From an uncultured Thermoleophilia bacterium (lineage in GTDB: Bacteria > Actinomycetota > Thermoleophilia > UBA2241), in the NCBI GenBank assembly GCA_963784975.1, contig CAWAUK010000014.1, forward strand, positions 1-32,000: a stretch of DNA of 32,000 nucleotides, in the 5' to 3' direction. Numbering within the stretch: position 1 is the stretch's first letter; each line of letters begins with the position of its first letter. Below are positions 4,484-27,965 of this stretch, piece by piece. Under the pieces are notes generated by a model that worked only from the letters and a program-made list of their open reading frames with translations, had not been told where the DNA came from and made no database searches. A program made the translations under genes and the position numbers.

Positions 4484-4544
4484 GCGCGGCGCGCAGTCCG
4501 CAGTGCCCGTCCAGCCCGCCCAGACAGCGACAGGATCTTCGCCC

Positions 4545-4874
4545 ATGTGCCTCGCCCTTCCCATGCGCATCACCGCCCTCCACGGCGCCCTCGCGACGAT
4601 AGCCGTCGAGGGCCTCGAGCAGCAGTGCAGCGTCATGCTCGTGCCGGAGGCCGCCGTGGGCGACTACGTGCTGGTGCACGCCGGATTCGCCATCAGCGTC
4701 ATCGACGAGGCGGAAGCGCAGGAGACCTACGACCTCCTGCGCGAGATCGGCGCGTTCGACGAGGGTGACGACTTGCCGGCCGACGAAGGTGACGACGTCC
4801 CCGGCGGCCAGGTCGCCGGCCCAGAGGGCAGCGCCTCCGGCGACGATCCTGTGGGCGGCGATGACGGCCGCTGA
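4545..4874 (+). CDS. hypC: hydrogenase assembly chaperone HypC with long acidic C-terminal tail
   Basis: The ATG at 4545 gives the canonical N-terminus MCLALPMRI (Cys2). The ~70-aa HypC core is followed by a ~36-aa Asp/Glu/Gly-rich tail. The upstream part of ORF 4023..4874 overlaps hypF and is not protein-like. Confidence 0.85.
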   Translation: MCLALPMRITALHGALATIAVEGLEQQCSVMLVPEAAVGDYVLVHAGFAISVIDEAEAQETYDLLREIGAFDEGDDLPADEGDDVPGGQVAGPEGSASGDDPVGGDDGR

Positions 4875-5928
4875 CGACCTCGGCCGGCTCGCCGCCGAGC
4901 TACGTAAGGAGGCCGGGCCGGGCCTCACCTTCATGGAGGTGTGCGGCACGCACACCATGGCCATCGCCCGGTACGGGCTGCGCCAGCTGCTGCCAGAGGG
5001 CGTCCGCCTGGTCAGCGGGCCGGGCTGCCCGGTCTGCGTCACGGCGATGGCCGACCTCGACCGCGTGCTTGCGCTCGCCCGGCTGCCCGAGGTCACGCTG
5101 GTCACGTTCGGCGACCTCATCCGTGTGCCGGCGTCGCGCGGCACCCTGGCCGCGGAGCGCGCCGCCGGCGCCGACGTGCGCGTCGTGTATTCGCCGCGCG
5201 ACGCGGTGCGCATCGCGGCCGAGGAGCCGGAGCGGCAGGTCGTGTTCGCCGGCATCGGCTTCGAGACGACAGCACCCACCACGGCTGCGGCCCTGCTCGA
5301 GGCGCGCGCATCCGGCCTCGCCAACTTCAGTCTGCTGAGCCTGCACAAGACCATGCCGCTGCCGCTCCGCGCCCTCCTCGACCTCGGCGAGACGCCCATC
5401 AGCGGGTTCCTGCTGCCGGGGCACGTGAGCGTCATCACCGGGACCGCGTGCTACGAGTTCCTGGCCGGCGAGTACGGCATCGCCGGGGTGGTGGCGGGGT
5501 TCGAGGCGGGCGATGTCATGGAGGCGCTGCTCATGCTCGTGCGTCTGCCCGAGCCGAAGATCGTCATCCAGTACACGCGGGCGGTCCGTCCCGAGGGCAA
5601 CGTCGTGGCACAGCGCCTGCTGGAGCGGGTGTTCGAGCCGAGCGACGCCGCCTGGCGCGGCCTCGGCGTCATCCCCGGCTCCGGGCTTGCCCTCCGCGAG
5701 GAGTTCGCCGACGTGGACGCGGCACGCCGGTTCGTCGTCGACCCGGGCCCATCACTGGAGCCGCCGGGCTGCCGCTGCGGCGAGGTCCTGCGCGGCGTCA
5801 CCGACCCTGCCGACTGCCCCCTGTTCGCCGCGCGCTGCACACCGGAGGATCCCGTCGGTGCCTGCATGGTGAGCAGCGAAGGAGCCTGCGCCGCCCGGTA
5901 CCGCTTCAGAGGGATCGATGATGCCTGA
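4861..5928 (+). CDS. hypD: hydrogenase formation protein HypD
   Basis: Motifs present: MEVCGTHT, GPGCPVCVT, GFETTAPT and the C-terminal Cys cluster (PGCRCGEVLRG...CPLF...GACMVSSEGAC). The ATG at 4861 overlaps the hypC 3' end by 14 nt. Confidence 0.92.
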   Translation: MTAADDLGRLAAELRKEAGPGLTFMEVCGTHTMAIARYGLRQLLPEGVRLVSGPGCPVCVTAMADLDRVLALARLPEVTLVTFGDLIRVPASRGTLAAERAAGADVRVVYSPRDAVRIAAEEPERQVVFAGIGFETTAPTTAAALLEARASGLANFSLLSLHKTMPLPLRALLDLGETPISGFLLPGHVSVITGTACYEFLAGEYGIAGVVAGFEAGDVMEALLMLVRLPEPKIVIQYTRAVRPEGNVVAQRLLERVFEPSDAAWRGLGVIPGSGLALREEFADVDAARRFVVDPGPSLEPPGCRCGEVLRGVTDPADCPLFAARCTPEDPVGACMVSSEGACAARYRFRGIDDA

Positions 5929-6964
5929 GCGCCCCAGGCGGACCGGCGAGCGCGTCCTCCTCGGCCACGGCAGCGGCGGCAAGCTGTACCGCGACCTCGT
6001 CAAGGACGTCTTCGTCTCCGCGTTCTCCAACCCGGTGCTCGAGCGTCTCGACGACGCGGCCGCGCTGGCGCCGTCCGGCCGCGTCGCCTTCACCACGGAC
6101 GCGCACGTGGTGCAGCCGCTGCGGTTCCCCGGCGGCGACATCGGCCGTCTGGCCGTGGCCGGCACCGTGAACGACCTCGCGACGGCGGCGGCGCGGCCGC
6201 TGGCGCTCGCCGCCGCCTTCATCATCGAAGAGGGCTTCGCCGTGGACGACCTGCGCGCCGTCTGCGCCAGCATGGCGGCCGCGGCGCGCGAGGCGGACGT
6301 CCCCATCGTCACCGGCGACACCAAGGTGGTGGAGCGCGGCGCCGCCGACGGCCTGTTCATCACGACGACAGGCCTCGGAGAGATCGTCGTCGCGCACGAG
6401 CTCGGGTCGGCCGCAGTCCGCGACGGCGACGCCGTCATCCTGAGCGGAGCCATCGGCGACCACGCCGTCGCCATCCTGACGGCGCGCGGGGAGTTCGACT
6501 TCCGCGCAGACGTGCGGAGCGACTGCGCACCGCTCTGGGGCCTCGTCGAGGCCGCGCTGACGGCGGCGCGGGAGCACGGCGGGGAAGAGGCTGTCCGCTT
6601 CCTGCGCGATCCCACCCGCGGCGGCCTCACGACGGTGCTCGCCGAACTGGCGGAAGAGAGTGGCCTCGGGATCGAGGTCGAAGAAGCGGCGATCCCCGTC
6701 GCGCCGGCGGTGCGGTCGGTCTGCGACCTGCTCGGCTACGACCCGCTGACCCTGGCCAACGAGGGGAAGATGGTGCTGGTGACGGCGGCGGAGGCGGCGG
6801 ACGTCGTGGTCGCCGCCATCCGGACGACCGAGTACGGCAGCGAGGCGCGGCGGATCGGCTTCGTCGCCTCCGCGCACCCCGGCCGCGTCGCCCTGCGCAC
6901 GCCGTTCGGCACGCGCCGTGTGCTGGACATGCCGGTCGGCGAACTGCTGCCGCGGATCTGCTAG
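5918..6964 (+). CDS. hypE: hydrogenase maturation protein HypE (carbamoyl dehydratase)
   Basis: AIR-synthase-like protein with an N-terminal GHGSGG and the diagnostic C-terminal PRIC. Its start overlaps the hypD stop by 11 nt. Confidence 0.93.
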   Translation: MMPERPRRTGERVLLGHGSGGKLYRDLVKDVFVSAFSNPVLERLDDAAALAPSGRVAFTTDAHVVQPLRFPGGDIGRLAVAGTVNDLATAAARPLALAAAFIIEEGFAVDDLRAVCASMAAAAREADVPIVTGDTKVVERGAADGLFITTTGLGEIVVAHELGSAAVRDGDAVILSGAIGDHAVAILTARGEFDFRADVRSDCAPLWGLVEAALTAAREHGGEEAVRFLRDPTRGGLTTVLAELAEESGLGIEVEEAAIPVAPAVRSVCDLLGYDPLTLANEGKMVLVTAAEAADVVVAAIRTTEYGSEARRIGFVASAHPGRVALRTPFGTRRVLDMPVGELLPRIC

Positions 6965-7399: not shown

Positions 7400-7668
7400 C
7401 GGTCCCTTACTCCGGTCCCTCCAGCCAGTTCGGGAGGGCAGCAAGGTCGTCGTCCTGCGTGGTCCGCGCGAAGGCAGCGTCGTCGTCTTCAGGGTCGACT
7501 CACTCGAGAAGTTCTGGGAGAGGGCGACCGCCGGAGCCGACGCCGACTCGGACGACTAGCGCAAGAGGCCTCGCGGGGACGACGGGTCCACGCTCTGAGG
7601 TTCTCTGGGGGTACGCGCTCGAGGGCCGATCGTCGAAGCGACGGGGTGAGCAGTCCTGTGAGGATGAC

Positions 7669-7744
7669 TGGAGCCCGGTCGCGGATTCGAACCGCGGACC
7701 CCCTCCTTACCATGGAGGTGCTCTGCCTGCTGAGCTAACCGGGC
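7669..7744 (-). tRNA. tRNA-Thr (anticodon GGU)
   Basis: The reverse complement folds as a 76-nt cloverleaf: acceptor GCCCGGU/ACCGGGC, anticodon stem CCUCC/GGAGG, loop AUGGUAA, T-loop UUCGAAU, encoded CCA. Confidence 0.93.
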
Positions 7745-7745
7745 C

Positions 7746-7830
7746 TGGTGGGGGAGCCAGGATTTGAACCTGGGTAGGCTGCGCCAACGGATTTACAGTC
7801 CGCCCCCTTTAACCACTCGGGCACTCCCCC
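7746..7830 (-). tRNA. tRNA-Tyr (anticodon GUA), long variable arm
   Basis: The reverse complement GGGGGAGUGCCCGAGUGG...GGACUGUAAAUCC...GGUUCAAAUCCUGGCUCCCCCACCA is 85 nt, a bacterial type-II tRNA-Tyr layout. Its encoded CCA end is separated by 1 nt from the 5' end of tRNA-Thr, so the two are probably co-transcribed. Confidence 0.93.
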
Positions 7831-7842
7831 GGGAGCCGTGGA

Positions 7843-7871
7843 ATCCTAGCCCAAAGCCGGGGCGCTTTCAA
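7843..7871 (-). promoter_or_regulatory. candidate sigma70-type promoter for the tRNA-Tyr/tRNA-Thr pair
   Basis: On the minus strand: TTGAAA (7871-7866), a 17-nt spacer, then TAGGAT (7848-7843). The -10 element ends 12 nt before the tRNA-Tyr 5' end. This is a pattern match only. Confidence 0.35.
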
Positions 7872-7957
7872 CCGCCCCCGAGGCTGCGGCACGTGCGGCG
7901 GAAGGCCGGTCCGGCGAGCGCGTCGGCGGGCCGCGCAGGCCGGGTCCAGAAAGAGGC

Positions 7958-7991
7958 AGCCGGGGTCGTCAGGTGGATGACGACCCCGGCT
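7958..7991. other. 13-bp perfect stem-loop (GC-rich, 8-nt loop)
   Basis: AGCCGGGGTCGTC-aggtggat-GACGACCCCGGCT. On the minus strand it is followed by a weak T-rich tract (GCCTCTTTCT), so it could terminate an unannotated minus-strand transcript coming from 8000-8270. Confidence 0.4.
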
Positions 7992-8237
7992 TGAAAGGGT
8001 GTGACGCCCGGCCAGGGGGAGCGGGACGTCACGGGGGACTCGCATGTCATCATGGCGGCCGGACGGCGAGGGGGACTCGCCGCGGCGCTTGTGATGACAT
8101 GCGCATTCTATCCGATATACGGTCGCGCGCAACCGTTCTGCGGACCAATCGGCCTCGGGAGAATTGTACCGATTGTCCAGCGGTGATCGGCCTTGGCGAC
8201 GACCGGCAGGCCGCCGCGACAACCAGCTCTTCTCGGA

Positions 8238-8266
8238 TTGAGCGCGAAATATGCCTGTGGTACCGT
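8238..8266 (+). promoter_or_regulatory. candidate sigma70-type promoter for the CAU tRNA
   Basis: TTGAGC (8238-8243), a 17-nt spacer, then TACCGT (8261-8266), 13 nt upstream of the tRNA 5' end. Pattern match only. Confidence 0.35.
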
Positions 8267-8279
8267 AAGCATCCGCCGT

Positions 8280-8356
8280 GGCGGCGTAGCTCAGCTGGTC
8301 AGAGCAGCGGAATCATAATCCGCGTGTCGTAGGTTCGAGTCCTACCGCCGCTACCA
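8280..8356 (+). tRNA. tRNA with CAU anticodon (elongator Met or lysidine-type Ile2; not initiator)
   Basis: 77-nt cloverleaf: acceptor GGCGGCG/CGCCGCU, anticodon stem GCGGA/UCCGC, loop AUCAUAA, T-arm GUAGG-UUCGAGU-CCUAC, discriminator A, encoded CCA. It has A31-U39 instead of the initiator's three G-C pairs, and positions 1 and 72 can pair (G-U). Confidence 0.9.
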
Positions 8357-8911
8357 GCACTCCCATCTCGTGTGACCCCCTTCATCGGTCGGTTTGCTGC
8401 GGTCCTGCTGATCAGTGGCCTGGGCGATCGCGACCGTTCCCGTCCCAGGTCCCGCCGCGTCACGCTGCTGGCGCGGCGACAGGTGGCCGTGCATGCGCTG
8501 GGTGAAGTCCGGATCCGCGAGTTTGCGGCGCGGCGCGTCGATGCGTGAACGATTCTTCAATGGCTCTACCATTTTCTACACATGTATATATTGACAGGGA
8601 GGACGTACTGACGGAGGCTGTGCTGCACATACGGGAAGGCTACCCCTGCGGAAGGGATGGCCTGGCTGTTGTGACGACGCCCCCGCCTCCTCTCAGCCGG
8701 GCTGCCAGGAATCGATCTTGGTGGCTCGGCTGTTGTGCATTCTGGATGCTGCGCAAGGAGGAGAGTTGCAGGAGGTGAGATGACTTCCCGCGGACCACCT
8801 CAGGGCGACGGACGATCCATTCCGGGTCGCAGCGACGCCGAGATGCAACGGCAACATGACGCCGCGGATGTGATAGGCAAGGTACGTCACCAAACGGAAG
8901 GAGGGTCACGT

Positions 8912-9115
8912 ATGCAGTGTTATGTGTGCGCGAAGGCCGGCAAGCAGACCGAGGCGGTCGGCATCTGTATCGTGTGCGGCATGGGTCTCTGCATGGATCA
9001 CGCGATCCGCGAGGATGTCGACCTGTGGGAGGGGGGTTACCCGTTCCCGAAAGAAAAGGCCAAGAAGAAGCTGCCGCGCATCCTCTGCGCGGAGTGCAAG
9101 GAAGTCCTCGTCTAA
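8912..9115 (+). CDS. 67-aa Cys-rich metal-binding miniprotein (DUF2180-like, from memory)
   Basis: ATG at 8912 with GGAAGGAGGG 6 nt upstream. Product: MQCYVCAKAGKQTEAVGICIVCGMGLCMDHAIRED...ILCAECKEVLV, with C3xxC6, C19xxC22, C27xxH30 and C59xxC62. An in-frame ATG at 8780 also has an AGGAGG, so the start is uncertain. Confidence 0.65.
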   Translation: MQCYVCAKAGKQTEAVGICIVCGMGLCMDHAIREDVDLWEGGYPFPKEKAKKKLPRILCAECKEVLV

Positions 9116-9239
9116 CGCGACAACCGCACGCTGAGTCACCTCTCGAAGACCAAGCGCGACCCGGGCCGGTCGCCCGACCGGCGGCCCATCCCGGTGGAGT
9201 GATGAACGGAAACCGGTCAAACGAGGTACGGAGGTAGAG

Positions 9240-10772
9240 ATGTCGCTTTATGAGAAGATGATCAACGAGGCCGTCGGCGCCACCAAGGCAGTGTTCGGCG
9301 TCAACAAGGCCAATCGCGGCGGCACCTTCAAGGTCGTCGATGCCAAGCCCTACGTGGACGCCGTCAATAAGATGACGGTCTATGAGGGTCAGTCCAAGGA
9401 GGTCATCGACCTCCACGTCAAGTCGGTGAACGCGCACTTCGACGTCATGACCTCGCTCACCGACACGGTGCGTCCCGAGGACGACCCGTTCGTCGAGCAC
9501 TATCAGACGCCGCCGATCCTCGAGATCATGTATGAGGAAGATCCCGCGTTCAAAGCTTCGATGTGGAAGTTCATCGACGCCATCGCCGCGAACAAGGCAC
9601 TCATCGGCCGCGAGTCCGTGCGCCGCTACGGTGGCATGTACGGCCCCACCTGCGTCGTCGACTTCGCGATGTCGGTCGGCTCGGTGCCCAACGTCGTGAA
9701 CCAGATCCTCACCGGAATGGACATCCCCAAGGACCACAAGCAGACCATCCTCGCCTGCAAGTCCTGGGGCATGAACACCTCCTACGGACTCGCCGGCGCG
9801 TTCCGCGGGGCCTTGGAGTCGGGCAAGACGGCGGCCGAGGCCGAGCAGGCCGAGGTCGACATGCTGCAGTTCGTGTACCGTGAGCCCTGCGCCGCCCAGT
9901 CGCAGCTCATGGACACCCACAACCTCGGCGGCCACGGCCCGCACACCTCCTTCGACACGCGCAAGTACATGGCGGGCTACAAGGACAAGATGCGCGCGTC
10001 CGTCGTCGCCGCCATGAAGGGCGGGGTGCACTACGCCAACATCACCGCCGTCCCCGCCTACTGCGTCGGCGACGTCGCTCACCACATCGCGCAGTCGGCC
10101 TACAACATGTTCAACGACGACATGGTGTTCGCCATCTACGAGGCAGTCACCGGCGTGCTCGAGAACACGCTCAACCGTGCCCTCAAGGCCGACGCCTTCA
10201 AGGGCCCCTACGACGTCCTTTCGGTGGCGACGGGCTCGACGGCGTGCGCCACGGCGTACATCCTGTGGAAGGACAGCTTCACCGTCCCGATGGTCATCGA
10301 CCTGCTGAACAAGCGCTTCCACAACTACGCGGCGATGCATCCGGACCGCGGCGAGGCCGACGAGCTGCACAACGTCGACTTCATGGACATCCTCAAGCGC
10401 GGTGAGGCGATCCTCGACATCACCCCGCTCGGCAAGGGTGGCAAGGTCAAGGGCGTCGAGGTCGATCTCAGCACGGTGGACAGCAACGAGGTCATCAGCA
10501 ACCCGCAGCGCTACACCTACCCGGCCTGCGCCATCACGCAGCGCTTCGCCGCCCTGATGACGCTGTCCGACTTCCCCTGCTTCCTCACGCCTGAGTGCAC
10601 CACCGCCACCCTCATGACGAACGCCATCGCCGTGGCTCCCGGCGTGCCCGGCGCTCCGGTGCGCGGCTGCAAGCAGTGCGCGACCTGCGACCTGATCAAG
10701 AGGAACGTCCCGATGGCGACCGGCCTTGGCTCCGGCGCCAAGGGCTACTGCCAGTGGAACGTGACCGTCTGA
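9240..10772 (+). CDS. 510-aa conserved-looking protein of unknown function with Cys-rich C-terminus
   Basis: ATG with GGAGG 6 nt upstream and a balanced, protein-like composition. By contrast, the antisense 576-aa ORF is Arg/Gly/His/Val-rich. Motifs include GGMYGPTCVVDF, SWGMNTSYGLAGAF, YCVGDVAHHIAQSAYNMFNDD and a C-terminal RGCKQCATCD...YCQWNVTV. I cannot place it in a known enzyme family. Confidence 0.8.
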   Translation: MSLYEKMINEAVGATKAVFGVNKANRGGTFKVVDAKPYVDAVNKMTVYEGQSKEVIDLHVKSVNAHFDVMTSLTDTVRPEDDPFVEHYQTPPILEIMYEEDPAFKASMWKFIDAIAANKALIGRESVRRYGGMYGPTCVVDFAMSVGSVPNVVNQILTGMDIPKDHKQTILACKSWGMNTSYGLAGAFRGALESGKTAAEAEQAEVDMLQFVYREPCAAQSQLMDTHNLGGHGPHTSFDTRKYMAGYKDKMRASVVAAMKGGVHYANITAVPAYCVGDVAHHIAQSAYNMFNDDMVFAIYEAVTGVLENTLNRALKADAFKGPYDVLSVATGSTACATAYILWKDSFTVPMVIDLLNKRFHNYAAMHPDRGEADELHNVDFMDILKRGEAILDITPLGKGGKVKGVEVDLSTVDSNEVISNPQRYTYPACAITQRFAALMTLSDFPCFLTPECTTATLMTNAIAVAPGVPGAPVRGCKQCATCDLIKRNVPMATGLGSGAKGYCQWNVTV

Positions 10773-10813
10773 GGCGAGCGGACAACGTGCATCTGACGCG
10801 ACGCTGACCGGAA

Positions 10814-10852
10814 CGAGCGGGGATCGAGAAAAGGAATCTCGATCCCCGCTCG
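10814..10852 (+). other. 16-bp perfect intergenic stem-loop between the 510-aa gene and the MIP gene
   Basis: CGAGCGGGGATCGAGA-aaaggaa-TCTCGATCCCCGCTCG. No U-tract follows, so it looks like an mRNA stabiliser, processing site or attenuator rather than a classic intrinsic terminator. Confidence 0.6.
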
Positions 10853-10889
10853 GGCCGCCGCCCTGTCAATTCGTTCTGGAGGTGACACT

Positions 10890-11624
10890 GTGCCGCAACC
10901 CAGCCTTATGAAGCGCGCCGTCGCCGAGATGATCGGCACCTGGGTGCTGGTGTTCCTGGGCACGGGTTCCGTGGTGACGATGGTCGTGTTCTTCAAGTCT
11001 CTCGACGCCGTCAATCAGGCCGCTCTCCTGCTCATCGGCATATCCTTCGGGGTCGCCGTCCTCGTGATGATCTACGTCTTCGGGCACATCTCGGGCACCC
11101 ACATCAACCCTGCTGTGAGCATCGCCCTGTGGATCACCGGGCGCTTTCCGGCCAAGGACATGGTGGCGTATGTCATCGCGCAGCTGATCGGCGCGTTCCT
11201 CGCTTCGGCGACGATCTATGCCCTTTGGGGGTCGCGCGCCGTCGACGCAGGACTGGGCATCACGCTGCCGGGAGCCGGGGTGAGTTACACCCAGGCGATC
11301 TTCGTCGAGATAGTCCTGACGTTCTTCCTGGGGCTCGCCATCTGGGGCTCGGCAGTCGACAGCCGGGCGCCCGGGGGCTTCGCAGGGCTCGCCATCGGTC
11401 TCGTGGTCGCCGCCGATATCTGGGTCGGTGGCCCGCTCACCGGGGCGTCGATGAACCCGGCGCGTTCCTTCGGGCCGTTCCTTGGCGAGAGTGTGTTCGG
11501 CGGCTCGGCCGCCGATTGGGCCAAGTTCCCGATCTACATCATCGGGCCGATCGTCGGCCTGGCCCTGGCGGGCTTGGTGTACGACTACGTCTCAGACCTG
11601 AAGAAGAAGGCCGCGTCTGAGTGA
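10890..11624 (+). CDS. MIP-family channel (aquaporin AqpZ/AqpM-like)
   Basis: GTG with GGAGGTG 5 nt upstream (alternative ATG at 10908). It has six hydrophobic segments and both NPA boxes (SGTHINPAVS and GASMNPARSFGP). Confidence 0.9.
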   Translation: MPQPSLMKRAVAEMIGTWVLVFLGTGSVVTMVVFFKSLDAVNQAALLLIGISFGVAVLVMIYVFGHISGTHINPAVSIALWITGRFPAKDMVAYVIAQLIGAFLASATIYALWGSRAVDAGLGITLPGAGVSYTQAIFVEIVLTFFLGLAIWGSAVDSRAPGGFAGLAIGLVVAADIWVGGPLTGASMNPARSFGPFLGESVFGGSAADWAKFPIYIIGPIVGLALAGLVYDYVSDLKKKAASE

Positions 11625-11678
11625 ACGACGTGCCGCCGGTGTCCTTCCGGGAGACGACGGTGCGAAGCAAGCAGTGAT

Positions 11679-11733
11679 GGGGCGAAGGCGGGGGCGTGAC
11701 GCTGGTCACGATCGCCCCCGCCTTCGTCGCCCC
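11679..11733 (+). other. long GC-rich intergenic stem-loop between the MIP and flavoprotein genes
   Basis: GGGGCGAAGGCGGGGGCG ... CGCCCCCGCCTTCG(TCG)CCCC: a 14-bp stem plus 4 more bp across a 3-nt bulge, with a 16-nt loop. Its presence argues against the GTG 11696 start for the next gene. Confidence 0.55.
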
Positions 11734-11767
11734 GGACGATAGCGTCGAGCAGGGATCTGGAGAACGG

Positions 11768-12388
11768 ATGAACGGCAGGGGTATGAGGCTCCTCGGGGTC
11801 TCGGGAAGTCCGCGTCGCAAGGCGACGGACTTCGCGGTGAACGAGGCGCTCAGGTACGCCCGTGAGCAGCACGGTGCGGACGTCGACTACTTCAGCGCTC
11901 ATCGCAAGTCCATCGGGTTCTGCGTGCACTGCGACGCGTGCATTCGCAAGAAGCAGGGGTGTGCCTTCAAGGATGACATGGAGGAGGTGTATCCCAAGCT
12001 CGAGTGGGCCGACGCCTGGATCCTCGGTACGCCTGTGTACCAGGGGCAGGTGAGCGGCCAGTTGAAGGCGATCCTCGACCGCTGCCGGGCACTCGTCGCC
12101 GGCGAGCCCGGCGTCTTTCGCAACAAGGTCGGGGCCGGCATCGCCGTGGGGGGAGACCGCAGCGGTGGCCAGGAGCCCACGCTCCAGACGATCGCAGGCT
12201 TCTATCTCATCAACGAGATGATCCCCGTCGGCGGCGGCGCGTTCGGCGCGAACCTCGGCGCCGCCGTCTGGTCACACGACAAGGGCGCCGCCGGCGTCGA
12301 GGCCGACGATGAGGGCGTCCGCGCGATCCACCGTGTGGTCGACCGCCTGGTCGAGGTCACCCGTCTGGTCGCTCGTCCGGTATCCTGA
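11768..12388 (+). CDS. iron-sulfur flavoprotein (Isf-type, NADPH-dependent FMN reductase fold)
   Basis: The N-terminus (MRLLGVSGSPRR...) is typical of the FMN-reductase fold, and the compact Isf cysteine motif is present (CVHCDACIRKKQGC, i.e. CxxCxxCx6C). The start could be 11768 or 11783. Confidence 0.8.
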   Translation: MNGRGMRLLGVSGSPRRKATDFAVNEALRYAREQHGADVDYFSAHRKSIGFCVHCDACIRKKQGCAFKDDMEEVYPKLEWADAWILGTPVYQGQVSGQLKAILDRCRALVAGEPGVFRNKVGAGIAVGGDRSGGQEPTLQTIAGFYLINEMIPVGGGAFGANLGAAVWSHDKGAAGVEADDEGVRAIHRVVDRLVEVTRLVARPVS

Positions 12389-12395
12389 GGAAGTG

Positions 12396-12968
12396 ATGAC
12401 GATGACGCTGAAGGTTGTGTGGGGCATCAGCGGTTCCGGCGACAAGATGCCCGAGACCGTCGCCGCCATGGCGCAGGCTCGGGAACGGCTCGACCTGGAG
12501 ATCACGGCGGCCGTGTCCATCGCCGGGGAGCGGGTGCTGCGCTGGTACAAGCTGCGCGAGACGGTCGACGAGATCGCGAAGTCGGTGAAGATCGAGAAGG
12601 ACGCCAACTCGCCGTTCATCACCGGGCCGTTGCAGATCGGTCAGTACGATTGCCTGCTGGTGGCGCCCGCGACTGCGAACTCGGTGGCGAAGATCGTGCA
12701 CGGCATCGAGGACAGCATGCTGACGAACGCCGTCGGGCAGACCGCCAAGTCGACGACGCCGATCTACATCATGCCGGTCGATCTCCGCCCGGGCACGACG
12801 GTGACCATGCGCCCCGGCGGCGAGCGCCTCGAGCTCAAGATCCGCGCGATCGACGTGGAGAACACCAGCAAGTTGCGCACCATGGAAGGCATCAGCGTGT
12901 TCGAATCGCCCTCCGAGATCGAGGGCATCCTCCGGGCTTGCGCGGAACGGAAGGACGTCGGCTCGTGA
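12396..12968 (+). CDS. AfpA/DmrB-like flavoprotein (candidate dihydromethanopterin reductase)
   Basis: HFCD-type flavoprotein motifs: VVWGISGSGDK and LLVAPATANSVAKIVHGIEDSMLTNAV. It lies 7 nt after the Isf gene and overlaps the start of mptG (GTGA). The functional name rests on context plus the known DmrB/AfpA relationship. Confidence 0.7.
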   Translation: MTMTLKVVWGISGSGDKMPETVAAMAQARERLDLEITAAVSIAGERVLRWYKLRETVDEIAKSVKIEKDANSPFITGPLQIGQYDCLLVAPATANSVAKIVHGIEDSMLTNAVGQTAKSTTPIYIMPVDLRPGTTVTMRPGGERLELKIRAIDVENTSKLRTMEGISVFESPSEIEGILRACAERKDVGS

Positions 12969-13936
12969 GGGTGTCGGTCGACACCGGCTGCAGGCTGCAC
13001 TTGGGCTTCACCAACCTGAGCGACGACGTGGGCCGCTGCTATGGCAGCCTCGGCGTCGCGCTGGACCGTCCCAGCACGACGGTCATCGTGGAAGAATGCC
13101 GTGACGCGGTCGTCGTCGGAGACGACCCGGAGCAGATCCGCGCGTGCTATGCGGCGCTTCTGTGACCACTATCAGGTCGACCCCCGGGTCTCCATCGAGG
13201 TCAGCGAGTGCATCCCTCAGCACGTCGGTCTCGGCTCGGGTACGCAGCTCGCCCTGGCCATCGGCCTGGGCCTGGCGATGGTCTGCGGTATCGACGCAAA
13301 TGTGTGGGACGTCGCCTCGGCCATGGGCAGGGGACGCCGGTCCGGGATCGGGACGGCGGCATTCCAGACGGGCGGATTCGTCGTCGATGCCGGTCACAAG
13401 AGGGGCGGGATCCGGTCGGGACGCGGCGCCGACGGTGGTGTGGCGCCGCGATCTTCCCGCAGACTGGCGCTTTGTCGTGGTCGTTCCCGACGCGGACGGC
13501 GGTCTGAGCGGGCACAGCGAAGAGGGGGTCTTCGGAGCGTTGGCGCCGTCGGTGCGGATCTCCGAGGAGATCAGCAGGATCACGCTGCTCAGACTGATGC
13601 CGGCCCTCGTCGAGCACGACATCGAGGAGTTCGGCCGCGCCTTGACTGCGGTGGACCGCAAGACCGGCGAGTACTTCTCGGATGTGCAGGGCGGCATATA
13701 CGGCGGGGGGGAGACCAACGCGGCCGTCGATGCTCTGCTGCGCGCCGGCGCCTGCGGGGCGGGACAGAGTTCCTGGGGGCCGGCGGTCTATGGCCTCGTG
13801 CACGAGAAGGATGTCGGGAGGATCGAAGCAGCGGTCAAGAAGTCCCTGGCGGACGACTGGCAGAGAGGCGCAGGTCTTCGCGAGTCACGGCCGCAACACG
13901 GAAGCGAGAGTGGAAGTACTGAAGGTCGCGCTATGA
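12965..13936 (+). pseudogene. mptG: beta-ribofuranosylaminobenzene 5'-phosphate synthase (H4MPT biosynthesis), interrupted by three +1 frameshifts
   Basis: The GHMP-kinase-like protein is spread over frames 2, 0, 1 and 2. Segment 1 is VRVSVDTGCRLHLGF...IRACYAA, ending near 13157. Segment 2 is FCDHYQVDPRVSIEVSECIPQHVGLGSGTQLALA...GGFVVDAGHK, with the next shift between 13400 and 13435. Segment 3 is VVWRRDLPADWRFVVVVP...SSWGPAVYGLV...LADDW, with the last shift near 13860-13873. Segment 4 is QVFASHGRNTEARVEVLKVAL*. This could be real decay or sequence error. Confidence 0.8.
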
Positions 13937-14518
13937 GGTCGGGCCGAGATCCTGAAGCAGCGCTGCCAGCGCGCGTTCGTAGGCAGATCCCGGCGCCACT
14001 TTGCCCACGATCCGGTGGTTCTCTGTGATCGTCGTCAGCGCAGCACCGGCGCCCAGGCGCTCCAGTCTTGTGGCAAGGACCAGGCTCTCGAGCAGGAGTC
14101 CTTCGGCGCGGTTGATCAAGCGCGGCGCCCCGTGGCGATGCACGCGCCTGACGTCGCCCACGAGACGCATTCTGTCGCCGCCGGGGGTCGCGCTGGTCAG
14201 GACCAGCTCTACGTTGACCGTGCACCCGGCGATGACAGGCGCATGGACGTCTTGCGCCCCCGCGAACAGCAGTTGCTCCGGGGCTCGCAACGCCACGTAC
14301 AGCATCCCGGCATCCGCGGGGAAGTTGGCCACGAACTCGCCGCCGTCCAGGATGTTCGCCAGCGTCCGCGAGCCGTCGTACACGTCCATGCACAGCTCAT
14401 CCGGGCCGCTGGTCCACACACCGATTGGAGCCGCGTGGGGGGTGCCATCGCGAAAGGTGGAGATCAGGACTTCGTAGATCCAGCGGTCTTGCATGCCGAG
14501 CCGGCGCAGCTGATCCAT
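13931..14518 (-). CDS. DUF447-like protein (FMN-binding split-barrel type, H4MPT-cluster associated; from memory)
   Basis: 195-205 aa (WIYEVLISTFRDGTPHAAPIGVW...). ATG 14518 has AGGA 7 nt upstream; GTG 14548 and ATG 14494 are alternatives. Its stop overlaps the mptG stop convergently by 6 nt. Confidence 0.65.
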   Translation of the reverse strand: MDQLRRLGMQDRWIYEVLISTFRDGTPHAAPIGVWTSGPDELCMDVYDGSRTLANILDGGEFVANFPADAGMLYVALRAPEQLLFAGAQDVHAPVIAGCTVNVELVLTSATPGGDRMRLVGDVRRVHRHGAPRLINRAEGLLLESLVLATRLERLGAGAALTTITENHRIVGKVAPGSAYERALAALLQDLGPTS

Positions 14519-14663
14519 GTGTGATCCTGTTTGACGGAGGCGAGTCACGCCTCACCGGTAGCGAGCGACAACTGAAGATGGAGAGGGAGTATATCTCGGG
14601 TGGACACGGGCGGAAGTCCGTCGTCGGGCTCGGATTCTCTCGACCGAGGGAGGTTGGCGCGTC

Positions 14664-15536
14664 ATGAAGAAGATCCTGCTGCAGCTCGACAGCGATCGCA
14701 CGGCGAGCGTGTTCGACGCAGTCACGGCCTACGACGCCGGTGCGGACGTGCTTCTTCAGCATGGCTCGGTGGAGCCGGCCGAGGTCCGTGCCATCGTCTA
14801 CGGCGCCATGTTCACGCGCGGCGGCGAAGACCTCAAGAGTTCGGCCGTGTTCATCGGCGGGGCCGACGTGGCCAAGGGCGAAGCCCTGCTCAAGGAGGCC
14901 TGCGGCGCCTTCTTCGGGCCGGTCCGGGTCTCCGTGATGCTGGATGCCAACGGGTGCAACACCACGGCGACCGCCGCCGTCGTCAAGCTTCTCTCCGCCG
15001 GCGATCTGCGCGGGAAGAAGACGGTCGTGCTGGCCGGCACCGGCCCGGTCGGCCGCAGGGCGGCCGGGCTCCTCGCGAAGGAAGGGGCGGACGTGGTCGT
15101 GGCCGAGACCCTGCCCACGGGGACGATGGAGCGGGCGAAGGACGCCTGCGCCACCATCGAGGAGCGCTTCGGGGTGCAGGTGACCCCCGCCGCCGCCGCC
15201 GACGCAGCCGCCACTGCGCGCGTGCTCGAGGGGGCGGAGGCGGTCCTCTGCACCGGCGCCGCCGGGCTTCAGCTGGTCTCTGAGACGATCTGGAGAGATC
15301 ACCCCACCCTGCGGGTGCTGGGCGACGTGAACGCCGTCCCACCGGTCGGCCTGGAGGGCACCAAGGCGACGTGGGACGGCAAGGACGTTGACGGCAAGAT
15401 CGTGTTCGGGGCTCTCGGCATCGGCAACCTCAAGATGAAGATCCACCATCGTTCCGTCGGACGGCTCTTCGAGCAGAACGACCTGGTCCTGGATGCGGAG
15501 GAGATCTTCGCCCTCGCCAAGGAGCTGGCGCAGTAG
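14664..15536 (+). CDS. mtdB: NAD(P)-dependent methylene-tetrahydromethanopterin dehydrogenase (MtdA/B/C family)
   Basis: 290 aa with GAGGGAGG upstream. The sequence has the MtdA/MtdB layout (MKKILLQLDSD...VFDAVTAYDAGAD..., Rossmann segment VVLAGTGPVGRRAA). Which paralogue it is cannot be decided by eye. Confidence 0.85.
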   Translation: MKKILLQLDSDRTASVFDAVTAYDAGADVLLQHGSVEPAEVRAIVYGAMFTRGGEDLKSSAVFIGGADVAKGEALLKEACGAFFGPVRVSVMLDANGCNTTATAAVVKLLSAGDLRGKKTVVLAGTGPVGRRAAGLLAKEGADVVVAETLPTGTMERAKDACATIEERFGVQVTPAAAADAAATARVLEGAEAVLCTGAAGLQLVSETIWRDHPTLRVLGDVNAVPPVGLEGTKATWDGKDVDGKIVFGALGIGNLKMKIHHRSVGRLFEQNDLVLDAEEIFALAKELAQ

Positions 15537-16734
15537 TGCGAGTCCTCGTCCTCGGAGTGAGCACGCGGGCGATGGTCGAGTCCGCGGTCCGCGGCGGTCA
15601 CGAGGTCGTTGCCGTGGATTTCTTCGGCGATCGCGATCAGGCGGGGTTGGCGGAGAGCTACGCGTTGCAGCGGGATCTCGGCCTGCCGGCGACCGCGGAA
15701 GGGTTGGCGGCGGCGGCGCGACGCATCGCCGCCGACGCGGTCGTCTACGGCGCCAATCTGGAGAACCACCCCGAGGTGGTCGGCGAGCTGACTCACGGAG
15801 TGCGGCTGCTCGGCAATCCGGCCGAGGTCGTCCGGGACGTGCGTGACTGGAGCCTGCTCCGACGCGTCTGTGTGAAGGCCGGGATCGCGCACCCGGTGAC
15901 CCTGCTGCGCGGCGAGGAGGAGCGCGCCCGGCGCGGGCGCTGGTTGAAGAAGCGCCTGCGCAGCGGCGGCGGCCACGGGATCGCGGCATGGGACGGCACA
16001 GCGCTGGACGACGCTCACCTGTCTGCAGGCCGAAGTGGACGGCCGCGCAGCTTCGGTCGCGTTCGTGGCCGACGGCAAGGAAGGTCGCATCTTCGGCCTC
16101 ACCGAGCAGCTCTTGGGGCTTTCCGCGCTGGGTGGTTCCGGTTTCGCCTGGTGCGGCAACGTGCTGCCGCTCGAGGTCCCGGAGGCGGACGCCGCATCGG
16201 TCCGCGCCCAATTGGAGCACATGGTGTCGTGTCTTACCCGGCACTTTGGCCTCGTCGGTGTCAACGGGTTGGACGTGGTGATCGGCCGCGACCCCGAAGG
16301 CGTCGTGCGGCCGTTTCTGATCGAGGTCAACCCGCGCTTCAGCGGTTCCATGGAGCTGGCGGAACGCGCCTTCGGCGTCGGCGTGTTCGCGCTCCACGTC
16401 GAAGGCTCAGCGGGCACTATGCCGCGCGGTTCTTTCGCCGTCGAGCGCGCTCCCGACGGCTGCGTCGGCAAGGGGATCGTGTACGCACGGCGCCCGGTCG
16501 TCGCCCCGGACACCGGGAAGTGGCGTTCCCGCGGCGTCCGGGACGTGCCGTGGTCCGGCCAGCAGTGTCGCCGCCGGGCATCCGGTGTGCACAGTATTCG
16601 CTCGCGGCCGAGACCGTGAGGCGTGCCTTGACGGACTGTCCTCGGCTGCGGCCGCGGTGTATGGAGATATCGAGGAGAAAGAGGAGGGGCGCCGTGGGCA
16701 AACGACTCGCCTTCATCACCGGACGCGCGCGTAG
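15536..16734 (+). pseudogene. ATP-grasp ligase of the C1-cofactor cluster type, interrupted by two +1 frameshifts
   Basis: Frame 2 reads MRVLVLGVSTRAMVESAVRGGHEVVAVDFFGD...KKRLRSGGGHGIAAWDGTALDDAHL up to 16021. After an extra nt at 16022, frame 0 reads LQAEVDGRAASVAFVADGKE...LIEVNPRFSGSMEL...RDVPW. After a shift near 16558-16562, frame 1 reads SSVAAGHPVCTVFARGRDREACL...* and ends at 16734. Confidence 0.75.
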
Positions 16735-16773
16735 GGCGTCCGGCATGCACAGGGGCACAGAGGAGGCGGTGGC

Positions 16774-18410
16774 ATGATGCTCGGCATCCTCGGCGGGCGC
16801 GTCTACGACCCGCGAAACGGCAAGGACGGCGAGGTCGGCGACATCTGGGTGAAGGACGGCCGTGTGGTTGCGCCGGAGGACGTGGACCGAGAGTCGGCGC
16901 AGACCGTCGACGCCGCCGGCCTTGTGGTCATGCCCGGCGGCGTCGACATCCACGCGCACATCGCCGGCGGCGAGGTGAACTCTGGCCGCAAGCTTCAGCC
17001 TGAGGATCACCGCGGCCATGAGCGCGCGCGATCGGCCAACCTGCGCGCGGGCGCCGGAGGGATCGTCCCCTCCACCCACCTCACCGGGTATCTCTACTCC
17101 GAGCTCGGCTACACGACGGTGATGCAGGCGTCCGCCGCGCCGCTCGCGGCCCGGCACGTCCACGAAGAGCTCGAGGACGTGCCCAACATCGACAATGGCA
17201 CCTACATCGTGATGGGCAACAACCACTTCGTCATGCAATGCATCGCCGACAAGCAGCCCGAGAAGGCGCGCGACTATGTGGCCTGGCTCCTGCGAGCCAC
17301 CCGCGGCTACGCGATCAAGATCGTGAATCCCGGCGGCGTCGAGAACTGGAAGTGGGGCAAGAACGTCGCCGAGCTGGACGACGAGGTCATCGGCTACGGA
17401 GTCACTCCGCGACAGATCGTCCAGACCCTGGCTTCTATCGCCGACGATCTCGGCCTGCCGCACTCGATCCACGTCCACGGCATCAACCTGGGCCGGCACA
17501 CGAGCGCCAGAACGAGCATCGAGACGATGGCCGCCCTCACCGGGCATCGCCTGCATCTGTGCCACCTGCAGTTCCTGAGCTACGGGGCGGGACGCGGCCA
17601 CATCCACTCATCGGAGGCGGCCGCCGTCGCGGCGGCGGTCAATGCCAACCCGGAGTCACCGTCGACGTCGGACAGCTGATCTTCGGCGATGCCACGACGA
17701 TGACCTGTGACGGCCCTCTCCAGTACGCCCTCTACCAGACGACCGGCCACAGGTGGATCAACAGCGACGTGGAGAGCGAAACGGGCGGGGGGGTCGTGCC
17801 CATCGTCTACAAGCGCCCGCAATCCCATCAACGCGACGATGTGGCTCACCGGCATGGAGCTCTTCCTGCTGATCGACGACCCGTGGCGGGTCTTCCTGAG
17901 CACCGATCATCCCAACGCTGGTCCCTTCACCAGCTATCCACAGGTCATCAGGCTGCTCATGGACCGCGACTACCGGCGGGAGGTGTTCGAGAGCCTGCAC
18001 CCGCGTGCACGCCGAGGGAGCTCTGCTTCCGGAGCTGGACCGCGAGTACTCTCTCGGCGAGATCGCCGTCATCAGTCGCGCCGGTCCCGCACTGGCGCTC
18101 GGCCTCGAGCACAAGGGCCACCTGGGCGTCGGCGCCGACGGCGACATCGCCATCTATGAGGATCGCGCCGACAAGGAGGCGATGTTCGCCCGCCCGCGGT
18201 ACGTCTACAAGGGCGGCGAGCTCGTCGCACGCGACGGCGTCGTCGTCGCGGATAGTCCGCGGTCGCACGTTCGCAGTGGCGCCGGAGTACGACACAGGGA
18301 TCGAGGCCGAGCTACGCGAGTACTTCAAGGAGGCGTACACGGTCTCGTTCGACAACTTCTCGATGCTTGCCGGCCACGAAGCCCCCTTCGAGATCGTGGC
18401 CTGTCGCTGA
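16774..18410 (+). pseudogene. fwdA: formylmethanofuran dehydrogenase / formyltransferase-hydrolase subunit A (amidohydrolase), interrupted by four frameshifts
   Basis: Frame 1 holds MMLGILGGRVYDP...GGVDIHAHIAGG...AIKIVNPGG...HLCHLQFLSYG...AVNANP. A -1 shift near 17653 leads to frame 0: VTVDVGQLIFGDATTMTCDGP...GGGVVPIVYKR. A +1 shift near 17814-17818 leads to frame 1: [43 protein letters not shown]...HPR. A +1 shift near 18000-18012 leads to frame 2: [27 protein letters not shown]...[15 protein letters not shown]...DGVVVAD. A +1 shift near 18251-18254 leads to frame 0: [13 protein letters not shown]...EIVACR*. Confidence 0.85.
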
Positions 18411-25476: not shown

Positions 25477-26334
25477 TCAGTGCGCCCCTTGAGGCGCCGC
25501 CGACGGCCCTTGCTCTCCCGGCGCCGCGGGCTGGCAGATCAGGATCTCCCCCTTGCCCAGCCAACAGGTGTCTCCTGTGAAGCGCCGGTAGGGGCCGCGC
25601 CAGCCGTGTTCAGGGGCCGGCACGCCACGCTTCTGAAGGTGTTCCGCGTAGACACGCAGGAAGGTAGGTTCGTATGTGCAGGCGTAGAGAAAGGTCGGCA
25701 GGAGATTGAGCGGCTCAAATGCCACGATCGTGCCTCTGGCCATCCAGGCGCCGGCACGGATGCCTGCCCTGCCGAACAGGAACAGGGTGCCCCCCTTCAT
25801 CTGCAAGCCTGCGAAGTCGCCCACCTGTCCCTGGATGCTGATGAGGCCTCGCAGCATCCGCATCCCGACCTCGATCCCCGCGCTGCCGTCGATCAGGATC
25901 TCGCCACCCCGCATGCCGACGGTGCTCCCACGATAGGCCGCGCCGACCTGCCCGCCGGCGCTGCCGTGGATGCGGATCAGGCCGCCGGTCATCTCCGCGC
26001 CGAGCCAGTCCGCGGCGTCCCCCTCGACCGTGATCGTCCCGCCGGTCATGTACGCTCCCAGGTGCATCCCCACGTTCCCCCGGATCACGATGCTGCCCTG
26101 GGTCATGCCGCGGCCGATCCACTTCACCTGAGCGAGGTTCCCGCGCAGTTCGAGAGCGGCGCTCTTCTCGCCCTCCACCTCGAAGAAGTCGCCCAGGCGG
26201 CGCCGTCGATTGCCCAGGTAGACCGGCTGCTCCAGGATCTCGGCGTGCCCCATCTCCCTGAGGTTGTCGGGCGAGAGCGCCTCGACTTCGAGAGGCGTCA
26301 TCAGCTCTTCCTTGAGCGTCGCCACGACGGTCAC
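25477..26334 (-). CDS. fwdC: formylmethanofuran dehydrogenase subunit C (second paralogue)
   Basis: 285 aa. The N-terminus VVATLKEELMTPLEVEALSPDN aligns by eye with methanogen FwdC N-termini. Repeats: GAYMTGGTITVEGDA, GAEMTGGLIRIHGSAG, MRGGEILIDGSAG. It starts 24 nt downstream of fwdB. Confidence 0.88.
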   Translation of the reverse strand: MTVVATLKEELMTPLEVEALSPDNLREMGHAEILEQPVYLGNRRRRLGDFFEVEGEKSAALELRGNLAQVKWIGRGMTQGSIVIRGNVGMHLGAYMTGGTITVEGDAADWLGAEMTGGLIRIHGSAGGQVGAAYRGSTVGMRGGEILIDGSAGIEVGMRMLRGLISIQGQVGDFAGLQMKGGTLFLFGRAGIRAGAWMARGTIVAFEPLNLLPTFLYACTYEPTFLRVYAEHLQKRGVPAPEHGWRGPYRRFTGDTCWLGKGEILICQPAAPGEQGPSAAPQGAH

Positions 26335-26358
26335 CTTGCCGCCGCCTCACTCAGTGCT

Positions 26359-27708: not shown

Positions 27709-27776
27709 GGCTCGCTCCTCCGTCGATCAGGTGATCGATGTCACGGTGCGCCCGCACGGGGCGCAGCTCTGAATGC

Positions 27777-27956
27777 TCACCCCAACGCTCCGCCGCGGAA
27801 ACTGCCGCGGACGCGGCGCGGCAGCCACAGATCGTCCCCGATCGCTTCCCACGCCGGGACCTCCTCGTCATGGGGCGACGTCTCCGGCTCGCGACGGGGC
27901 CGCTCGGGCTGGCTCGGCTGGTGGTCCGAAGCTCGTGATGTGTCCAAGATCACCAC
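27777..27956 (-). CDS. possible 59-aa ORF between fwdD and fwdB
   Basis: It is below the ORF-track cutoff. GAAAGGAG immediately follows the fwdD stop, then GTGGTG. Product: VVILDTSRASDHQPSQPERPRREPETSPHDEEVPAWEAIGDDLWLPRRVRGSFRGGALG. No family recognised, and it could simply be spacer. Confidence 0.25.
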   Translation of the reverse strand: MVILDTSRASDHQPSQPERPRREPETSPHDEEVPAWEAIGDDLWLPRRVRGSFRGGALG

Positions 27957-27965
27957 GCTCCTTTC

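Follow-up and report, generated by a model that had tools for sequence, protein, structure and literature searches.

The window analysed here is a stretch of 32,000 nucleotides (nt) of contig CAWAUK010000014.1, from assembly GCA_963784975.1 of an uncultured Thermoleophilia bacterium; its nearest kin, in a scan of one genome per GTDB species, are metagenome-assembled genomes (MAGs) of Thermoleophilia (Actinomycetota). Between positions 8912 and 12388 it carries four intact genes on the plus strand, each with a Shine-Dalgarno-like sequence, and the gene positions, strand and leaders given in a preliminary description of this DNA were all borne out by the sequence. The main subject of this work is the second of these genes, which encodes a protein of the DUF2193 family and stands at the head of a cluster for C1 metabolism dependent on tetrahydromethanopterin (H4MPT) and methanofuran (MFR). 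The four genes are the following:

8912 to 9115, plus strand: DUF2180 protein, 67 amino acids (aa); PF09947, E 1.6e-36; Shine-Dalgarno sequence GGAAGGAGGG upstream
9240 to 10772, plus strand: DUF2193 protein, 510 aa; PF09959, E 2.5e-226; Shine-Dalgarno sequence GGAGG 5 nt upstream
10890 to 11624, plus strand: AqpM-type MIP channel, 244 aa; PF00230, E 2e-52; Shine-Dalgarno sequence GGAGGTG before the GTG at 10890
11768 to 12388, plus strand: iron-sulfur flavoprotein (ISF) of the FMN_red type; PF03358, E 8e-33; the open reading frame (ORF) opens with GTG at 11696, and the likely start is ATG at 11768

The 510-aa protein had been described as an orphan that could be placed in no enzyme family. 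It belongs to no characterised enzyme family, but it is not an orphan: it matches Pfam DUF2193, one member of which has been studied biochemically, with 752.4 bits (cut-off 25), and its residues 2-489 cover profile positions 2-488 of 498. PF09959 was its sole profile match, so no homology to the formaldehyde-activating enzyme Fae (PF08714) was found. Hundreds of homologues were present in a large protein database; the best 120 were 74-96% identical, and the named ones among these were 'DUF2193 domain-containing protein' entries from Chloroflexota. Close homologues came from Thermoleophilia, Chloroflexota and other groups, and a contig index did not contain the exact window protein. An exhaustive HMMER search over 1.84 billion representatives gave 137 hits, about 15 of which were full-length 50% clusters and none of which lay outside the DUF2193 family, and the profile detected no related chain among PDB sequences. 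The AlphaFold2 model, built from a 23-sequence alignment, is almost wholly helical and of high confidence (predicted local distance difference test, pLDDT, 90.7; predicted template modelling score, pTM, 0.92), except for a low-confidence C-terminal loop. With this model, Foldseek found no match in the PDB, and the viral structure library BFVD gave none either. The model points to a soluble all-alpha protein without known fold relatives.

Residues E205, P216, N267 and G388 are invariant in the family alignment, while Q89, Y182, Y243, D278, H282, D293 and D294 are near-invariant. A terpene-synthase-like NSE/DTE motif considered near D293/D294 did not fit and was rejected. Across phyla, no other protein of the cluster is as conserved as DUF2193. 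Its identity to the Syntrophobacter homologue is 75%, compared with 45% for MIP, 59% for AfpA and 69% for MtdB; the Caldisericota homologue is 74% identical, against 36% for MtdB, and identity to Methanobacteria is 54%. In a neighbour-joining tree, the bacterial proteins group in a single clade inside the archaeal diversity, with Methanoperedens plus Methanobacteria as its sister.

The scan yielded 131 relatives, from which 80 loci were kept; the window proteins were mapped onto these loci and the flanking ORFs were clustered. H4MPT/MFR genes were present in 52 of the 55 bacterial loci with at least 3 kb of downstream sequence, in at least six phylum-level groups, and in 47 of the 55 mtdB lay downstream of the DUF2193 gene on the same strand. 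The groups with this linkage are Thermoleophilia, Anaerolineae, Desulfobacterota, Synergistaceae, Caldisericota and GBS-1. The DUF2193 gene is usually the first of the bacterial array, which runs DUF2193 > (MIP) > (DUF2180) > (ISF > AfpA > MptG) > MtdB > FwdD > FwdB > FwdA > Ftr, with MtdB always placed after DUF2193 and ahead of Fwd. Neither MIP nor DUF2180 occurs in Synergistaceae, Caldisericota and some Anaerolineae, and their mtdB follows 78-190 nt after DUF2193; in Synergistaceae, the DUF2193-MtdB pair occurs without Fwd nearby. The three exceptions to the linkage are L053, whose flank is of 3 kb only, and two Anaerolineae loci, L031 (8001-12837) and L037 (1040-5882), in which DUF2193 is followed by a short-chain dehydrogenase/reductase (SDR) and a tungsten-type aldehyde:ferredoxin oxidoreductase (AOR) without H4MPT genes. 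The surroundings of L031 contain a sugar ABC transporter, a SorC regulator, a xylose-isomerase-like TIM barrel and FIST and LarA-like genes.

This synteny is far beyond chance and recurs in dozens of genomes. The preliminary description had made conservation of the neighbourhood the test of its reading, and the neighbourhood is conserved; the connection it drew between the 510-aa gene and an H4MPT formaldehyde/formyl pathway is likewise real at the comparative-genomic level. Of the co-occurrences it wanted examined, that with H4MPT genes is general in bacteria, MIP was present in 37 of the 62 loci with at least 3 kb of downstream flank, and DUF2180 tracks MIP. [4Fe-4S] binding by a methanogen DUF2193 protein and adjacency to MIP are already known, and what is new is the link to bacterial H4MPT/MFR C1 clusters; in the searchable literature, we found no paper that connects bacterial H4MPT clusters with DUF2193 or with an aquaporin. 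We also searched for Fae, using a probe sequence validated by a match of 60% identity in L025. At that locus, fae directly follows DUF2193 and MtdB; the probe detected none in the window and none within the cluster flanks of 79 of the 80 loci.

In the window itself, the H4MPT genes that follow ISF are these:

12396 to 12968, plus strand: AfpA/DmrB-type flavoprotein, 7 nt after the ISF stop; TIGR02699, 209.8 bits against a cut-off of 192.45
12965 to 13922, plus strand: mptG (beta-RFAP synthase), whose GTG at 12965 overlaps the AfpA stop (GTGA)
13931 to 14548, minus strand: DUF447 protein, flavin-reductase-like and known in H4MPT clusters; PF04289/PF20766; same position in all Thermoleophilia loci
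14664 to 15536, plus strand: MtdB-like methylene-H4MPT dehydrogenase, the first C1-transfer enzyme downstream; PF09176 Mpt_N, E 1.6e-29

Further downstream lie fwdA/fhcA, mptA, a gene for a pterin-binding protein, DUF1464, ftr, an fwdC-like gene, mch and ATP-grasp ligase genes. A second Fwd-like set stands on the minus strand at 25477-28346, with a GXGXG/FwdC-like gene (25477-26334), FwdB (26437-27693) and FwdD (Molydop_binding, 27993-28346); most relatives instead have FwdD/B/A after mtdB and on its strand, and the second set of the window is divergent.

We also examined the contexts of DUF2193 representatives only 24-41% identical to the window protein:

41% identity, three metagenome contigs (L087-L089, e.g. 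L087 1-8512): mtrEDCBAFGH-mer-AOR-DUF2193, with a 1-nt gap between AOR and DUF2193
39% identity: zinc-dependent alcohol dehydrogenase (Zn-ADH) and Ldh_2 upstream of DUF2193
38% identity: 4-nt overlap with glycerol-1-phosphate dehydrogenase
36% identity: MFS transporter downstream of DUF2193
31% identity: MtrH-family gene overlapping the DUF2193 start, with a PNPOx-like gene next
29% identity, without the Cys tail: ribose/nucleoside cluster
28% identity: Ftr downstream of DUF2193

The AOR beside the 41% identical protein is closest to Pyrococcus furiosus AOR, and this archaeal operon suggests a formaldehyde branch off methylene-H4MPT. Taken over the whole family, the neighbours of DUF2193 are H4MPT-dependent C1 enzymes and alcohol/aldehyde oxidoreductases, with a minority of contexts that differ.

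The MIP gene begins 117 nt downstream of DUF2193. Its product scores above the cut-off of TIGR00861 (178.8 bits against 171.25) and below that of the Aquaporin Z equivalog NF003838 (144.3 bits against 256), and its best PDB matches are the archaeal AqpM structures 3ne2 and 2f2b (E 1e-53 to 1e-54, compared with 1e-30 for AqpZ). It has two NPA motifs (HINPAV and MNPARS) and, by alignment to 2f2b/3ne2, an aromatic/arginine (ar/R) filter of composition F-I-A-R. DUF2180 was found in 30 of the 37 loci that contain MIP and in none of the 25 that lack it; the miniprotein therefore travels with the channel.

The preliminary description had likened this miniprotein to archaeal DUF2180, and the match to PF09947 (124.7 bits, cut-off 22.2) confirms the resemblance. 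The rubredoxin likeness that it also suggested is not borne out, as no rubredoxin family was matched up to E 10 and the eight ligands (seven Cys and one His) imply two metal sites. These ligands (C3, C6, C19, C22, C27, H30, C59 and C62) are invariant among the 36 full-length sequences in an alignment of 37 distinct orthologues, with the pattern C-x2-C-x12-C-x2-C-x4-C-x2-H-x28-C-x2-C and a WEGGYP motif, which suggests a two-metal cross-brace finger. Other Pfam matches were sub-threshold only (B-box, FYVE and AN1), and a similarity to WhiB (E 0.24) was rejected as insignificant. The single-sequence AlphaFold2 model (pLDDT 55) was too poor for a fold search, and a literature search for DUF2180 found no paper.

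On the sequence evidence, our preferred reading, to which we give a probability of about 40%, is that DUF2193 may be a new-fold Fe-S enzyme acting at the formaldehyde/methylene-H4MPT node, fed by a channel in some lineages and with DUF2180 as an accessory. An archaeal-type module, composed of DUF2193 with its Fe-S tail and, in some lineages, an AqpM-type channel for neutral solutes and DUF2180, would in bacteria have been wired to the front of the H4MPT/methanofuran C1 pathway. There, DUF2193 would join formaldehyde to H4MPT, release formaldehyde from H4MPT or make formaldehyde from a small neutral precursor, and its product would pass to the next enzyme of the cluster, which would be MtdB in the window and AOR, Mer or SDR in other lineages. 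An external substrate would be admitted by the AqpM-type channel, candidates being methanediol/formaldehyde, methanol or a similar small uncharged molecule, and DUF2180 would be a metal-binding subunit associated with the channel or the enzyme. Some DUF2193 members do not have the Fe-S tail, so that it would serve in regulation or as an entry point for electrons and not form the catalytic core. We favour the formaldehyde node because formaldehyde-level carbon, free or H4MPT-bound, is common to most of the tight partners (MtdB, Mer with AOR, SDR with AOR, MtrH, Ftr and, in L025, Fae), and an enzyme role because strong conservation and invariant polar core residues are what is expected of an active site. 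Carbon dioxide, H2S or water as a sufficient explanation of the MIP link was rejected, since it leaves the MtdB, AOR and Mer neighbours unexplained. The pairing of a channel with a trapping enzyme is itself established, as in GlpF-GlpK and PduF-diol dehydratase, and the F-I-A-R filter of the window channel is wide and hydrophobic. We infer, as the preliminary description did and now with better motivation, an uptake-and-conversion route for a small neutral C1 compound.

A more specific form of this reading is more tentative: DUF2193 would found a new-fold family of anaerobes, acting either as a Fae-independent formaldehyde:H4MPT ligase/lyase or as an O2-independent generator of formaldehyde from a neutral precursor, which would enter via a DUF2180-gated AqpM-type channel. 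That precursor may be, for example, methanol or a hydroxymethyl-sulfur adduct.

Several points weigh against an enzyme at the formaldehyde node. Any activity of DUF2193 is deduced from gene context, and, given the single bacterial clade of the neighbour-joining tree, a large part of the bacterial synteny could go back to a single ancestral gene order, in which case the loci would outnumber the independent events. In the archaeal reference-genome loci (Methanobacteriota and Methanoperedenaceae), only DUF2193, DUF2180 and MIP occur, in this order, and no C1 genes are near them. L025 has both Fae and DUF2193, and the Fae reaction needs neither a metal nor an Fe-S cluster. Some subfamilies have non-C1 contexts, namely the glycerol-1-phosphate dehydrogenase overlap, the ribose/nucleoside cluster and Zn-ADH with Ldh_2, and the conserved hairpins after DUF2193 and after MIP, described below, may separate transcription units. 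The Methanococcus maripaludis homologue is non-essential (PMC12375889), and the 13-fold higher abundance of the Methanococcus voltae protein on pyrite (FeS2) points to Fe/S physiology (PMC12375889, PMC9431491).

The last of these points bears on a different role, which was proposed with the biochemistry of the M. voltae protein. That protein binds one [4Fe-4S] cluster in each subunit and is a tetramer in the apo form and largely a monomer in the holo form, and it was proposed to carry Fe-S clusters or act as a regulator (Dieter et al., FEBS Lett 2025, PMC12375889). Extended to the window, DUF2193 would be an Fe-S cluster carrier or an Fe-S/redox sensor-regulator, MIP would serve Fe/S acquisition, and the H4MPT link would reflect cluster supply to Fwd, which is rich in Fe-S, or co-regulation. 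The window protein does retain the C-terminal Cys tail, in which C477-x2-C480-x2-C483-D484 is followed by a stretch of about 19 residues and C504, where the published motif is CX2CX6DX2(H/C)X2C; an insertion of roughly 12 residues, common to the bacterial clade, alters the spacing of the motif and keeps its ligands. The response of the M. voltae protein to FeS2 fits such a role, as do the Fwd genes that come next in many bacterial arrays. However, the tail is missing from several full-length members in which the core of about 470 residues stays conserved, and neither the 54-75% identity across domains nor the invariant acidic, His, Asn and Tyr residues of the core would be explained. The tight neighbours are MtdB, AOR, Mer and MtrH, not Fe-S assembly genes, a Pfam scan found no DNA-binding domain in DUF2193, and an aquaporin pore is too narrow for FeS clusters. 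We consider a carrier or sensor unlikely.

The company of cofactor genes raises another possibility, that DUF2193 serves the maturation, repair or biosynthesis of a shared cofactor, either H4MPT/methanofuran or the W/Mo-pterin of Fwd and AOR, acting for example in sulfuration or insertion. Bacterial DUF2193 genes lie among those of H4MPT biosynthesis (AfpA, MptG, pterin-binding and HPPK/GCHY proteins), Fwd and AOR are both W/Mo-pterin enzymes, MobA/B and a ModC-like ATPase are encoded upstream in several Thermoleophilia loci, and AfpA stands upstream of DUF2193 in two Methanobacteria loci; the rise of the M. voltae protein on FeS2 could be a matter of sulfur supply (PMC9431491). This explanation is decidedly unlikely in our view. 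Among the relatives retrieved by the database searches and the genome scan, no DUF2193 came from aerobic methylotrophs, which make H4MPT and MFR, and the homologue in M. maripaludis is dispensable although H4MPT, MFR and Fwd are indispensable there (PMC12375889). The invariable position of MtdB between DUF2193 and Fwd, the Synergistaceae pairs that have no Fwd nearby, and a neutral-solute channel that would be left without a role all speak against it.

The adjacency might also be historical, if an archaeal DUF2193-DUF2180-AqpM block serving an unrelated task (water/osmotic, small-solute stress, sulfide/peroxide) was co-transferred with H4MPT genes and kept beside them although the two share no pathway. 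The single bacterial clade nested in archaeal diversity and the three-gene block of archaeal reference genomes are in line with this, and so is base composition: the G+C content ranges over 63-75% in the window, with 63-65% in the DUF2180-DUF2193-MIP block and 72-75% in the upstream hyp region. AqpM is primarily a water channel, and in a Methanocalculus strain it was raised 4-fold under high pressure (PMC12727201). Also in line with this are the conserved hairpins that border DUF2193 and MIP, which brings in the non-coding features of the locus:

8280 to 8356, plus strand: tRNA-Met (CAU), the upstream boundary of the cluster (ARAGORN; Rfam tRNA, 67 bits)
8357 to 8911, plus strand: leader of 555 nt before DUF2180, with an AT-rich patch (sequence inspection)
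10809 to 10857, plus strand: hairpin in the DUF2193-MIP spacer, G+C-rich and without a U-tract, with 21-nt arms that are 90% complementary
11679 to 11732, plus strand: hairpin in the MIP-ISF spacer (fold of 11622-11768: -75.2 kcal/mol, z = -3.1)

The preliminary description held that hairpin-containing spacers link these genes. This is so for the DUF2193-MIP spacer (z = -5.1 against shuffled sequence) and for the MIP-ISF spacer; the DUF2180-DUF2193 spacer shows no folding beyond that of shuffled sequence (z = -0.4). The DUF2193-MIP hairpin is kept in 13 Thermoleophilia loci, with compensatory changes at 10 of 15 pairs. It is probably a terminator or attenuator lacking the U-tract, or a stabiliser of the mRNA 3' end, and it could set the DUF2193:MIP expression ratio. 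The MIP-ISF hairpin marks the border between the channel module and the ISF-AfpA-mptG cofactor module. Against a merely inherited adjacency stands the repeated reshuffling of gene order, through which DUF2193 has nonetheless stayed in or at the head of the C1 cluster in those 52 of 55 loci; moreover, where MIP and DUF2180 were lost, DUF2193 has remained immediately ahead of mtdB, and the couplings to mer-AOR, MtrH and Ftr are those of independent, divergent subfamilies. A purely historical linkage appears very unlikely.

The fourth gene belongs elsewhere. Its translation contains a compact CxxCxxCx6C motif, CVHCDACIRKKQGC, and matches the FMN_red fold, so that the product appears to be an iron-sulfur flavoprotein and a putative cofactor binder. 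The preliminary description had grouped it with the channel and DUF2193, a grouping that does not hold: AfpA directly follows ISF in 30 of 32 loci (within L001-L068), ISF is absent from the archaeal DUF2193 loci examined, and in the window it is coupled to AfpA/DmrB and mptG. For these reasons, ISF looks like a member of the H4MPT cofactor module, going with AfpA/DmrB and mptG in cofactor reduction and biosynthesis. The AfpA gene product matches PDB entries 3wis/4mwg, 'putative dihydromethanopterin reductase (AfpA)', with E 2.7e-17 and is a probable dihydromethanopterin reductase. The 7-nt and overlapping junctions reported earlier are both real, except that the gene 7 nt after ISF is that of AfpA/DmrB and not mptG.

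With ISF in the cofactor module, the idea that miniprotein, DUF2193, MIP and ISF form one uptake-and-redox pathway, in which ISF and the miniprotein carry electrons to DUF2193, is the least likely of those considered. It draws on the shared strand and close spacing of the four genes, on ISF and DUF2193 both being Fe-S proteins and on a STRING network in which the M. voltae protein has FMN-binding and rubredoxin-like partners (PMC12375889 for both). It is opposed by the fixed ISF-AfpA order and the absence of ISF beside archaeal DUF2193, by the strong hairpin between MIP and ISF together with the tight junctions from ISF through AfpA/DmrB into mptG, and by DUF2180, which tracks MIP and not DUF2193.

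The four focal genes are free of frame disruption. The mptG gene is spread over three frames (2, 3 and 1), as a tblastn search with an intact orthologue matched 12965-13084, 13158-13400 and 13429-13869. By comparison with intact orthologues, fwdA/fhcA (16774-18410) lies in two frames, and a 413-aa ORF after mtdB (15536-16777) has an Arg-rich middle that seems to be out of frame and has no Pfam match as a whole. Similar split matches occur in loci of related long-read 'MFD' MAGs. These three disruptions are likely long-read indel errors, and they could also be pseudogenes.

Directly upstream of the cluster, hypF, hypD and hypE for hydrogenase maturation occupy 1931-6964 and are followed by tRNA-Thr and tRNA-Tyr on the minus strand (7669-7830). 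In the DUF2180 leader, the AT-rich patch with a TTGACA near 8590-8600 (within 8550-8610) is a candidate promoter region. A consensus promoter scan found no site in this leader, and promoter/terminator scans are uninformative in DNA of such high G+C content; an Rfam scan of 7500-12500 detected no riboswitch and nothing besides tRNAs. In one Methanobacteriaceae MAG (L077, 4938-7652), DUF2193 has divergent neighbours: a hybrid-cluster protein gene interrupted by a frameshift, a cupin gene and a gene for a small protein resembling sulfite/nitrite reductases.

Overall, the genes, their conservation and the H4MPT link of the preliminary description have stood, whereas orphan status, the grouping of ISF and the rubredoxin likeness have not. 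Although DUF2193 has neither an assigned function nor a known fold, it is conserved both in methanogens and across at least six phylum-level groups of bacteria, and its near-obligate placement heading H4MPT/methanofuran clusters, and by mer-AOR in archaea, gives a hypothesis open to assay. For anaerobic bacteria, the role of H4MPT genes has been called elusive (PMC5020050), and how C1 units enter the H4MPT pathway of these bacteria appears unsettled; the formaldehyde-forming step of the Methanosarcina Mtr/Mer bypass is unidentified (PMC5244752). If the more specific form of the formaldehyde-node reading is true, DUF2193 would be the missing entry step in the former case and a candidate for the formaldehyde-forming step in the latter, and an Fe-S enzyme paired with a C1-dedicated aquaporin would bear on both questions.

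Among known systems, Fae in the MtdB/Mch/Fhc clusters of methylotrophs holds the same pathway position, its gene lying directly upstream of mtdB in an H4MPT/methanofuran formaldehyde-oxidation cluster. There is no relation in sequence or fold: Fae is a small alpha/beta protein without a metal centre, whereas DUF2193 is a 510-aa protein, predicted to be all-alpha, with an Fe-S tail. Compared with methylotroph Fae clusters, DUF2193 clusters keep FwdD and an archaeal-type FwdB (compare PMC5020050). DUF2193 may thus work at the same node as Fae without belonging to its family.

GlpF-GlpK, PduF with diol dehydratase and an iron-containing alcohol dehydrogenase, and FocA-PflB are operons of a channel plus a trapping enzyme. 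As in these, a MIP or MIP-like channel lies beside what would be the first cytoplasmic enzyme, and aldehyde/alcohol oxidoreductases are near DUF2193 in several contexts; DUF2193 itself resembles none of the trapping enzymes. Like AqpM of Methanothermobacter marburgensis (2f2b) and Archaeoglobus fulgidus (3ne2), the window MIP has two NPA motifs and an Ile at the H5 position of the filter. It differs in having F-I-A-R in place of F-I-S-R, where Ala instead of Ser at LE1 makes the filter slightly wider and more hydrophobic, and in its bacterial host, the hosts of AqpM being archaeal. The ISF shares the FMN_red fold match and the compact four-Cys motif with Methanosarcina ISF. With AfpA/DmrB, a known family, it forms a fixed and translationally close pair before mptG. 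Archaeal DmrX is a flavoprotein fused to a ferredoxin domain, and the analogy suggests that the ISF-AfpA pair is a two-protein counterpart of this fusion, seemingly undescribed.

The closest parallel is the DUF2193-MIP pair of methanogens (M. voltae Mvol_0354, PMC12375889), where 91% of the homologues are near a MIP or porin gene (PMC12375889). The window has the same full-length Pfam family, a C-terminal Cys tail and an adjacent MIP, as well as the DUF2180 gene seen in the archaeal loci examined. It differs in that its DUF2193 protein belongs to the bacterial clade, is 54-61% identical to the nearest archaeal members, carries the Cys-tail insertion of about 12 residues and is embedded at the head of an H4MPT/MFR cluster. 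Judged by its sequences, the module represents, in bacterial form, a known archaeal gene pair that has no assigned function, and its link to C1 metabolism is new.

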